Positions 29,710-30,645 of a stretch of DNA of 64,000 nt are shown piece after piece (within the stretch, counting starts at the first letter, position 1; every line of letters starts with the position of its first letter). The notes under the pieces are model-generated. The model made no database searches. It was not told the origin of the DNA and saw only the letters and a list, made by a program, of their open reading frames with translations. The position numbers and the translations under genes were made by a program. This DNA comes from a virus. The DNA lies in the UHGV virus genome UHGV-0164982; one strand, 5' to 3'.

Positions 29710-30645
29710 TTAGAATGGTACATTGTCATCCATCTCAAAGTCTGGGGGTGCAACAGATATTCGATGAATTTCATTTCTTTCCATATCCATCATTTGATCC
29801 TCCTGCTCCCCATCATCGTACCACGATGAAGTGTCTACCTCTAAAGCTTCAGATATGACTTCAAATGTTTCAGGAGAGTCTAAGTGAGAAGCCATGTGCA
29901 ACGTGAACGGATAACTTTCTTCTAGGCTAACCCCATCATTCCTAGAACCATATTCTTGAGTAACATAGACAGTACCGGAAGCATATATATTGATGTACTC
30001 ATCATCAATCGACGTGATTCCAAATTCTTCGACTTCAGTGTAATCTACATACGCATGATTCGCGATAGTCACTAGGTTTTCAGGCATAGAGCTTACCGCC
30101 GTGTCAATAACTGCATTTCTAATTTTATCTTCGAGAGTACGAATTAATTCATCTCTACAAATATGTATACCATTTAGTATTTCTGTAGCGATCTGCAGTA
30201 TTTGTTTGGCCTTCAGGAAGAACTCTTGAGGTGATGGATGCATATATTTCTCTGTTATATGCGTATATTTATTTAAGAAGAAATAAAGCTTAAGCATCTC
30301 ATCTATTCTTTCATTCGACTCCTCCAGGAACTCTTCCCCCAAGTACGCATCTGAAATTTTAGCTTGAGAACAGTATTTTAAACGCTGTCTTCTAGATATT
30401 TCGTAATGTTCATGTTCTCTCTTATACCACGATGCTTGTAATAATTTATCATTCGGAGATTTTTTCTCGATAATATGCTTTATTAGCTCGCGAATTGAAA
30501 ATGCAAAGTTATGAAAACGTAATGGGTTGCCATGTGATGCATAATTTCGCAAACAAGCTGTGAATAATTCTTTTTCAAAATCAGTTTCTAGGTGACTCAT
30601 AAAATCATTCACAAAATCAAGAGATTGTAGTTTTTTAAGCTTCAT
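29710..30645 (-). CDS. 311-aa acidic protein of unknown function (AT-rich cargo)
   Basis: ORF with AAGG RBS; no motif I can assign; R-x4-H (RNYASH) near N-terminus; acidic C-terminal tail. Confidence 0.55.
   Translation of the reverse strand: MKLKKLQSLDFVNDFMSHLETDFEKELFTACLRNYASHGNPLRFHNFAFSIRELIKHIIEKKSPNDKLLQASWYKREHEHYEISRRQRLKYCSQAKISDAYLGEEFLEESNERIDEMLKLYFFLNKYTHITEKYMHPSPQEFFLKAKQILQIATEILNGIHICRDELIRTLEDKIRNAVIDTAVSSMPENLVTIANHAYVDYTEVEEFGITSIDDEYINIYASGTVYVTQEYGSRNDGVSLEESYPFTLHMASHLDSPETFEVISEALEVDTSSWYDDGEQEDQMMDMERNEIHRISVAPPDFEMDDNVPF

Follow-up and report, generated by a model that had tools for sequence, protein, structure and literature searches.

The window, by which we mean the whole stretch of 64,000 nucleotides analysed here (virus genome UHGV-0164982), is a P1/P7-like phage-plasmid that carries on its minus strand a gene for a 311-amino-acid protein. 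Judged by its profile matches, this protein is a member of the pP_pnuc_1/pP_pnuc_2 family, called 'Aga_Nuclease' in PADLOC, and the large part of the family that we sampled is Argonaute-free. Purifying selection on the ORF is strong. The protein ends in an acidic tail with a tip like that of the single-strand-binding protein SSB, and SSB-like tips are repeatedly carried by phage-borne versions of the family. We propose that the protein is a single-gene nuclease of the abortive-infection type that is regulated through a mimic of the SSB tail, a reading to which we give an even chance of being correct. Directly established are the family membership, the fold class, the lack of an Argonaute partner, the origin of the segment, the purifying selection and the recurrence of the tail motif.

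The gene, its family and its origin

An initial annotation of the DNA had described the ORF as intact and AT-rich with a ribosome-binding site of its own, and all three features hold. The reading frame starts with MKLKKL, the AAGG of the ribosome-binding site stands at 30656-30653, 7 nt before the ATG, and the GC content is 36.3% in comparison to 47.3% for the whole window (Table 1). No convincing promoter belonging to the ORF itself was found in the promoter scan, which gave fewer hits than shuffled sequence. Compared with a copy in a Klebsiella prophage (dS 0.82), the ORF has a dN/dS of 0.058, with 0.042 in the core and 0.21 in the tail. Because of this low ratio at such a dS, the 311-aa ORF is a functional gene and not a chance reading frame. 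Disrupted copies are few and scattered (L060 6001-6936, L042 8001-8835 and L043 8001-8354). L060 is a P1-like viral contig, 99% identical apart from the gene being split into 104 + 195 aa, and the copies from Marinobacter and Halioglobus (L042, L043) are split or truncated.

Table 1 Coordinates of the features discussed in the text, in positions of the window
Feature	Position	Strand	Basis
Truncated, frameshifted dbn/glt glycosyltransferase pseudogene (end of ban operon)	28985..29500	-	94% identity to P1/P7 dbn/glt; RefSeq
3' flank, homologous to the outer end of a P2-like prophage	29540..29709	-	blastn
311-aa ORF, two-domain pP_pnuc_1/pP_pnuc_2 protein	29710..30645	-	ORF list; Pfam, PHROG and PADLOC matches; dN/dS 0.058
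Stop codon of the 311-aa ORF	29710-29712	-	
SSB-Ct-like tip DDNVPF, extreme C-terminus	29713..29730	-	comparison with E. coli SSB
Disordered acidic C-terminal tail (aa 277-311)	29713..29817	-	pLDDT below 50 for 276-283 and 291-311
pP_pnuc_2 region (aa 163-276), long helix + 4-stranded antiparallel sheet, NTF2/cystatin/VirB8-like	29818..30159	-	
pP_pnuc_1 region (aa 17-152), all-helical HEPN-like domain (predicted)	30190..30597	-	
T128-H129, H129 candidate catalytic His	30259..30264	-	H 148/149, T 140/149
R52-E53, candidate active-site residues	30487..30492	-	R 149/149, E 138/149
RNYASH (aa 33-38), R-N-x3-H motif, clade-specific	30532..30549	-	invariant or nearly so in A1 and A3
3' stub of P2/186-like integrase gene, brought in with the ORF	30646..30918	-	81-82% identity, Klebsiella prophage ends
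Shine-Dalgarno-like AAGG, 7 nt 5' of ATG	30653..30656	-	direct sequence reading
IS200/IS605-family TnpB, between Pban and the ORF	31490..32665	-	Pfam OrfB_IS605, Cas12f1-like_TNB, HTH_OrfB_IS605
Bivalent C1 operator Op72ab overlapping Pban, 3' end of dmt	33012..33039	.	operator matches, 0 and 2 mismatches

The protein had also been called an orphan, a label that has to be dropped. Two Pfam models, both named 'predicted pPIWI-associating nuclease', match in order and above their gathering scores, namely PF18165 pP_pnuc_1 at aa 17-152 (1.5e-34, 118.9 bits, cut-off 26.3) and PF18166 pP_pnuc_2 at aa 163-276 (2.1e-33, 115.5 bits, cut-off 25). The PADLOC model Aga_Nuclease is matched end-to-end over its positions 5-267 of 267 (1.2e-62), and phrog_29508 matches the ORF at 2e-92. 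A profile search of 1.84 billion representative proteins with a threshold of E up to 1e-3 gave 744 family clusters at 50% identity; the part of the family sampled here comes from the higher-scoring clusters, above the lowest-scoring ones (roughly 600 of the 744). Members are usually 270-290 aa long, so that the 311-aa form is distinguished by an additional C-terminal extension. The protein had no match in NCBIfam, none among PDB sequences (phmmer, E up to 10) and none in 50,697 deposited phage genomes (tblastn), and the BFVD viral structures returned noise only (Foldseek, TM-scores 0.23 or less).

Pfam and PADLOC catalogue the pP_pnuc family as a predicted Argonaute accessory only. In our literature search, on the Pfam names, on mimics of the SSB tail in defence and on HEPN cassettes of integrons, neither a paper on the family nor an experimental characterisation of it turned up. 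Likewise, neither its Argonaute-free distribution nor its HEPN-like + NTF2-like architecture nor the recurrent SSB-tip tails on its phage-borne copies were found described in the literature searched.

The window encodes ParA/ParB, Rep, Ant/KilA, RdgC and Dmt, and contains 15 matches to the C1 operator where 0.35 are expected by chance. The 3.7 kb around the gene are 100% identical to pHYEC7-mcr1 and other IncY plasmids; carriers are 18 of 5426 complete E. coli genomes, with the gene almost always on plasmids, and 24 plasmids in PLSDB. Phage P1 is annotated with the C1-controlled ban operon between baseplate gene 5 and dmt; this operon comprises Pban/Op72, tRNAs, tciABC, ban and dbn. In the window, the body of this operon is replaced by a TnpB gene, an integrase stub, the ORF and a truncated dbn, and the Pban region (33012-33039) is about 95% identical to that of P1, with the promoter aimed towards tnpB and the ORF. 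Since Op72ab and Pban are conserved, the acquired genes now stand behind a promoter that is controlled by the phage repressor. The description of the ORF as transcribed against the surrounding late genes is right for the baseplate/tail operon, with which it is convergent, but wrong for tnpB and dmt, with which it is co-directional, downstream of Pban.

The TnpB gene is part of a TnpB-only element of the IS200/IS605 family (about 31115-33010) located directly downstream of Pban and the C1 operator. Positions 31115-31449 share 87% identity with a part of phage D6 that carries no annotation, and a sub-threshold Rfam match lies at 31396-31499; the Rfam scan of 28800-33100 gave sub-threshold hits only. 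The area 31115-31499 may represent the omega-RNA or the right end of the TnpB element.

On either side of the gene, the initial annotation had placed a pseudogene and an ORF-poor spacer. The pseudogene is a fragment of a dbn-type glycosyltransferase gene, and the spacer is partly a P2-like integrase stub (30646-30918), which RefSeq independently lists as a 'site-specific integrase' pseudogene. In blastn comparisons, 29540-30918 is 81-82% identical to the ends of Klebsiella P2/186-like prophages, with the identity running unbroken from the last ~245 nt of int across the ORF to the outer boundary of the prophage. By this homology, the gene copy and the integrase stub are derived from the int-proximal end of a P2/186-like prophage. 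The homology ends at 29534-29540, some 40 bp short of the dbn remnant, and we infer that the insertion of a P2-like element into dbn was followed by deletion of all but its int-proximal cargo. ARAGORN found no tRNA genes in the window; on the minus strand at 29534-29585, the string GGTTCAAGCCCGGTAGGGGACACC resembles the 3' part of a tRNA, and this string may be a remnant of the core of an attachment site. As a small AT-rich variable gene in a fixed slot beside a conserved phage neighbour, the gene resembles old/tin/fun of P2 and the cargo of P2/P4 hotspots, but its slot right after int and before the prophage end lies outside the two E. coli hotspots described there (PMC9122126).

Neighbourhoods of relatives and the Argonaute question

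The names 'pPIWI-associating nuclease' and Aga_Nuclease imply a linkage to Argonaute, and the flanks of the gene in the window are pseudogenes, which would suit an orphaned Argonaute effector, either dependent on a pAgo gene at another place in the host genome or left over from a decaying system of this kind. We consider this explanation very unlikely. A PIWI domain is absent from the 27 window ORFs of at least 250 aa, from 48 neighbours at 28 same-clade genome loci and from 41 neighbours on viral contigs. No Argonaute gene adjoins the ~55 related loci, with identities down to 29-35%, and none occurs in the annotated neighbourhoods of close or distant members, the most distant having 29% identity. 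The occurrence of the gene as a single-gene integron cassette, its dN/dS of 0.058 and the restriction of broken copies to scattered cases (L042, L043, L060) also argue against an orphaned effector. The earlier observation that the gene has no partner in an operon extends to its relatives: among the loci examined no partner is conserved, and among the 48 neighbours at the 28 same-clade loci no family is common to more than 2 loci.

The contexts in which relatives are found are those of mobile and defence genes. Tail-less relatives of 277 aa from Aliivibrio, Shewanella and Pseudoalteromonas (L032, L034, L037, L038) are located in chromosomal integron cassette arrays, where attC-type repeats (TAACAA...GGCGTTA) bracket the gene, and in L032 the gene is the sole occupant of its cassette. 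Annotated loci have defence-type neighbours that include a SIR2 protein, DUF2971, Abi_C, a reverse transcriptase, PIN, AbiE/TIR and AbiH, and a distant member (29% identity; L049 6001-6840) is situated inside a BREX-type operon with brxC-like and pglX-like genes on either side. In IMG/VR, 22 viral contigs carry relatives, with CI, integrase, terminase, portal and lysis genes as neighbours. In prophages of Klebsiella, Yersinia, Pantoea and Enterobacter the gene follows cI-int at a distance of 12-17 nt on the same strand. From the missing PIWI neighbours, the lone cassette and the viral-contig contexts it follows that, in the sampled part of the family, the gene behaves as a self-contained mobile gene; clades among the lowest-scoring clusters may still be linked to Argonaute. 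Because it travels as self-contained cargo in integron cassettes, defence islands, prophage ends and P1-like plasmids, it is a credible single-gene defence candidate, of a kind that the annotation pipelines of today would miss or mislabel.

Some of these loci have additional features. The cassettes in L037 and L038 appear to hold another small ORF upstream of the gene, of 267 aa in one case, weakly matching DUF5677, and of 152 aa in the other, with no match. In Pseudomonas aeruginosa (L002 8944-12777), a 1277-aa protein with SIR2_2 as its only Pfam match is encoded 110 nt downstream of a 277-aa relative on the same strand, and in Marinobacter (L042) a similar 1283-aa ORF lies upstream of the gene. 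These large proteins could be an occasional partner or merely the product of a neighbouring defence gene.

Argonaute (pAgo/pPIWI) systems are defined by a PIWI partner, and this partner is missing here and at the related loci examined. Two accessory nucleases of such systems are similar in construction. Like Agap-HEPN of AmAgo, the protein has an extra uncharacterised domain beside a domain, here only putatively HEPN-like, that was seen through structure prediction (PMC11162769). Agap-HEPN is an Argonaute-associated RNase of the HEPN superfamily that was identified only by structure prediction and is needed for anti-phage activity; its HEPN motif (R262, H267) lies towards the C-terminus, its authors found no BLAST homologues, and it acts with the co-encoded pAgo to give guide RNAs (PMC11162769). 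With bAgaN of the long-B pAgo BPAN systems the protein shares an organisation in two domains (PMC10620215, PMC13535254). The 390-aa bAgaN is a PD-(D/E)XK DNase (D298, E309, K311) that is autoinhibited when free, with a regulatory domain restraining the toxic catalytic domain, and its activity requires EcAgo, guide RNA and target DNA (PMC10620215, PMC13535254). Identity with bAgaN or another PD-(D/E)XK nuclease was rejected, the model of the protein showing a helical domain and an NTF2-like sheet and its sequence having no PDB hit at E up to 10. The REase of pPIWI-RE systems combines a zinc ribbon with a restriction-endonuclease fold and forms a fixed triad with a DinG helicase and pPIWI-RE (PMC3702460); all four of these elements are absent here, and this identity was rejected as well.

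Fold and conserved residues

The full-length AF2 model (pLDDT 81, pTM 0.71) consists of a helical N-domain, a connecting helix (139-191), an antiparallel four-stranded sheet (198-263) and a disordered tail. We assign an HEPN-like fold to the N-domain with moderate confidence. As modelled, the core resembles a non-canonical HEPN domain followed by an NTF2-like one, a pairing that is not known to have been described for a nuclease. The initial annotation had proposed profile and structure searches and had named the R-x4-H motif RNYASH near the N-terminus as a possible pointer to HEPN. The searches lean towards an HEPN-like N-domain at this moderate level, but gave neither a profile match to RnlA nor a PD-(D/E)XK nuclease fold. 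Alignment of the family profiles with the RnlA sequence by hhalign gave a probability below 1%; therefore, the HEPN link is a structural one only. The motif itself, at aa 33-38, has the classic R-N-x3-H form and hardly varies, if at all, among members of the clade (at least 44% identity), but it is no signature of the family: across 149 diverse representatives the position of R33 is R in 25 and that of H38 is H in 14, and conservation of both is limited to the gammaproteobacterial clade. A contiguous, family-wide Rx4-6H motif was not found in the 149 representatives.

Conservation across the same 149 representatives is concentrated elsewhere in the N-domain, at R52 (149), W73 (149), H129 (148), R85 (143), T128 (140) and E53 (138). 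In RnlA, the essential residues are R255, E258, R318 and H323 (PMC8266594). Counted from the start of the HEPN domain, these appear to occupy approximately the same relative positions as R52/E53 and H129. The protein may work most like the HEPN toxins of the RnlA/LsoA type, which are anti-phage HEPN RNases (PMC8266594, PMC3710099), while standing outside their family. In contrast to RnlA/LsoA (RNase LS, E. coli), with which it has no detectable sequence or profile similarity, it has no family-wide contiguous Rx4-6H motif, no TBP-like N-terminal domains and no RnlB/Dmd-type antitoxin as neighbour, and it has an NTF2-like C-domain and an acidic tail in addition. Membership in the RnlAB/LsoAB toxin-antitoxin systems was rejected on the lack of a conserved neighbour and the hhalign probability below 1%. 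The HEPN superfamily is characterised by metal-independent cleavage of RNA that leaves 2',3'-cyclic phosphate and 5'-OH ends.

Conserved residues of the C-domain are H197, G224, G233, D237, P246 and D271, and with H197, D237 and D271 this domain could be the catalytic part. The protein would then be a DNase with the same biological role, whose catalysis takes place in, or is shared with, the C-terminal NTF2-like domain and whose tail recruits it via SSB-tail binders to SSB-coated replication intermediates. Such an enzyme is implied by the word 'nuclease' in the Pfam and PADLOC names, but we regard it as improbable. The structure model contains no PD-(D/E)XK, HNH or other recognised DNase fold, the NTF2-like matches of the C-domain are mostly non-enzymatic scaffolds, and the best structural match of the most conserved part of the protein is to HEPN RNases.

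The acidic tail and the proposed function

The C-terminal tail is acidic, as had been noted from the start, with 12 acidic and 2 basic amino acids in the last 36 residues (from Y276); its likeness to SSB had escaped notice. The tail extends 34-35 residues beyond the ends of the Pfam and PADLOC models and is missing from the 277-aa relatives. Its tip peptide is PPDFEMDDNVPF, and E. coli SSB, translated from MG1655, ends in ...NEPPMDFDDDIPF. When the C-terminal end of the protein, APPDFEMDDNVPF, is set against that of SSB, EPPMDFDDDIPF, both have in common PP, DF, DD, [IV] and PF, with PF at the extreme C-terminus. Between DDNVPF and DDDIPF, 4 of 6 residues are identical and the other two conservative, and the PP..DF shared by both precedes them. 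Like the SSB tail (acidic tip MDFDDDIPF), that of the protein has a disordered linker and, as its very last residues, an acidic tip, which corresponds to the SSB-Ct type (disordered linker + terminal acidic D-D-D-[IL]-P-F tip). It differs from SSB in that the tail is attached to a nuclease-like protein without an OB fold and that the third Asp of the SSB tip is Asn here.

In enterobacterial copies, the linker diverges freely and the tip is retained (DESTPF, DESAPF, DDSPPF, DDDMPF, DENTPF, DDSTPF). Other lineages of the family have similar tips on different linkers, for example DDDLPF in Huaxiibacter (36% identity), DNDIPF in P0122 and FDDDVPF in P0164, and further tips in other lineages are ADNEPF and KESPF; many viral-contig copies end in [DE]F (EEEF, TETEF, EIDF, VVDF). 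Among the 18 family representatives whose tails measure at least 23 aa, 15 have a terminal Phe, and the figure is 12 of 15 when the protein's own clade is counted as one entry (binomial p about 7e-15 at a background of 4%). Tails are present in 9 of 13 distinct viral-contig copies as compared with about 1 of 27 non-prophage genome copies, an enrichment with a rough Fisher p of about 2e-5 that is to be read with the viral/non-viral split of the loci being approximate. A long-tailed subclade (L041, L073, L075-L078 and P0122) has a linker motif [KR]-L-F-P-[EG] upstream of the acidic tip.

Autoinhibitory acidic C-terminal tails also occur in SSB, T7 gp2.5 and T4 gp32. In Hfq, the nucleic-acid-binding surfaces are autoinhibited by an acidic C-terminal tail (PMC5606850). 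The SSB hexapeptide DDDIPF is a docking site for at least 17 partner proteins (PMC5872125, PMC10018359), and phage recombinases and annealing proteins dock on the C-terminus of SSB (PMC6393309, PMC13490951).

Enzymatic activity, substrate, defence role and tail function are what we infer for the protein in the preferred reading, that of a single-gene abortive-infection nuclease under control of an SSB-tail mimic. The protein would be a latent nuclease, probably an RNase that acts via R52/E53/R85/H129, and its active site may lie at a dimer interface, as in other HEPN enzymes. The acidic tail would function as a pseudo-substrate brake, i.e. a nucleic-acid mimic that keeps the enzyme off, and the SSB-like tip would link the enzyme to proteins with a docking site for SSB tails, for instance those of host or phage replication and recombination. 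Appearance or redistribution of these docking proteins would then release or localise the nuclease activity, and the tail-less majority of the family would be controlled some other way. The gene is mobile cargo: a fragment with the int stub at one side and the prophage end at the other was captured by a P1/P7-like phage-plasmid, in the ban operon. Its role would be abortive infection or exclusion on behalf of the carrier element in the competition between mobile elements. If the tip is functional, it would tie a nuclease directly to the SSB interaction hub and represent a new way to sense the replication machinery of a phage or to subvert that of the host.

The same tip could be understood as an integrated SSB decoy, which we hold to be a possibility of low probability. 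A suicide nuclease, borne by a prophage or plasmid, would here present the docking tip of SSB as bait for phage proteins, so that RecT/Red-beta-type annealases, phage helicases or polymerases bind the bait in place of SSB; this binding would pull the autoinhibitory tail off the enzyme and lead to abortive infection. Such a protein would be to bacteria what the integrated decoys of NLR immune receptors are to plants, and the decoy appears to have arisen repeatedly within one protein family.

Because the ORF lies behind a C1-repressed promoter with a TnpB gene upstream and no convincing promoter of its own, it may be expressed mainly on induction. For this copy, the defence reading is weakened by that position, since defence needs expression in the lysogen and the gene is located behind the C1-repressed Pban and TnpB. 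The rarity of the gene (18 of 5426 complete E. coli genomes) and the lack of a match in 50,697 phage genomes also count against the preferred reading.

Expression mainly on induction would also suit a counter-defence or host-takeover factor, an explanation that we judge unlikely. In that case, the tail mimic would compete with SSB for ExoI, RecQ, PriA, RecG and others, or the tail would deliver the nuclease to SSB partners in such a way that phage replication gains or a host defence is blocked, and not for the protection of the lysogen. Its place in the early ban operon, under C1 repression, points to expression of the gene upon induction or infection, and tails are enriched in phage-borne copies. 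Moreover, phage anti-restriction DNA mimics are often acidic, disordered proteins. On the other hand, most members of the family are tail-less and reside in chromosomal integron cassettes, defence islands and a BREX operon, the copies in P2-like prophages follow cI-int on the strand of the lysogenic operon, and the conserved core with its invariant R, E and H residues is enzyme-like. The gene may also bear on the persistence of resistance vectors, since mcr-1 P7-like phage-plasmids are among those that carry it.

Two more AT-rich cargo ORFs (about 36% GC), at 27826-28218 (+) and 28277-28978 (+), separate baseplate gene 5 from the dbn remnant; P1 has neither. Their products, of 130 aa and 233 aa, have matches to phrog_34496 and phrog_25194, both of unknown function, but none in Pfam and no significant one in PADLOC. 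A C-terminal segment of the 233-aa product is hydrophobic, and the two ORFs could form another small exclusion module.
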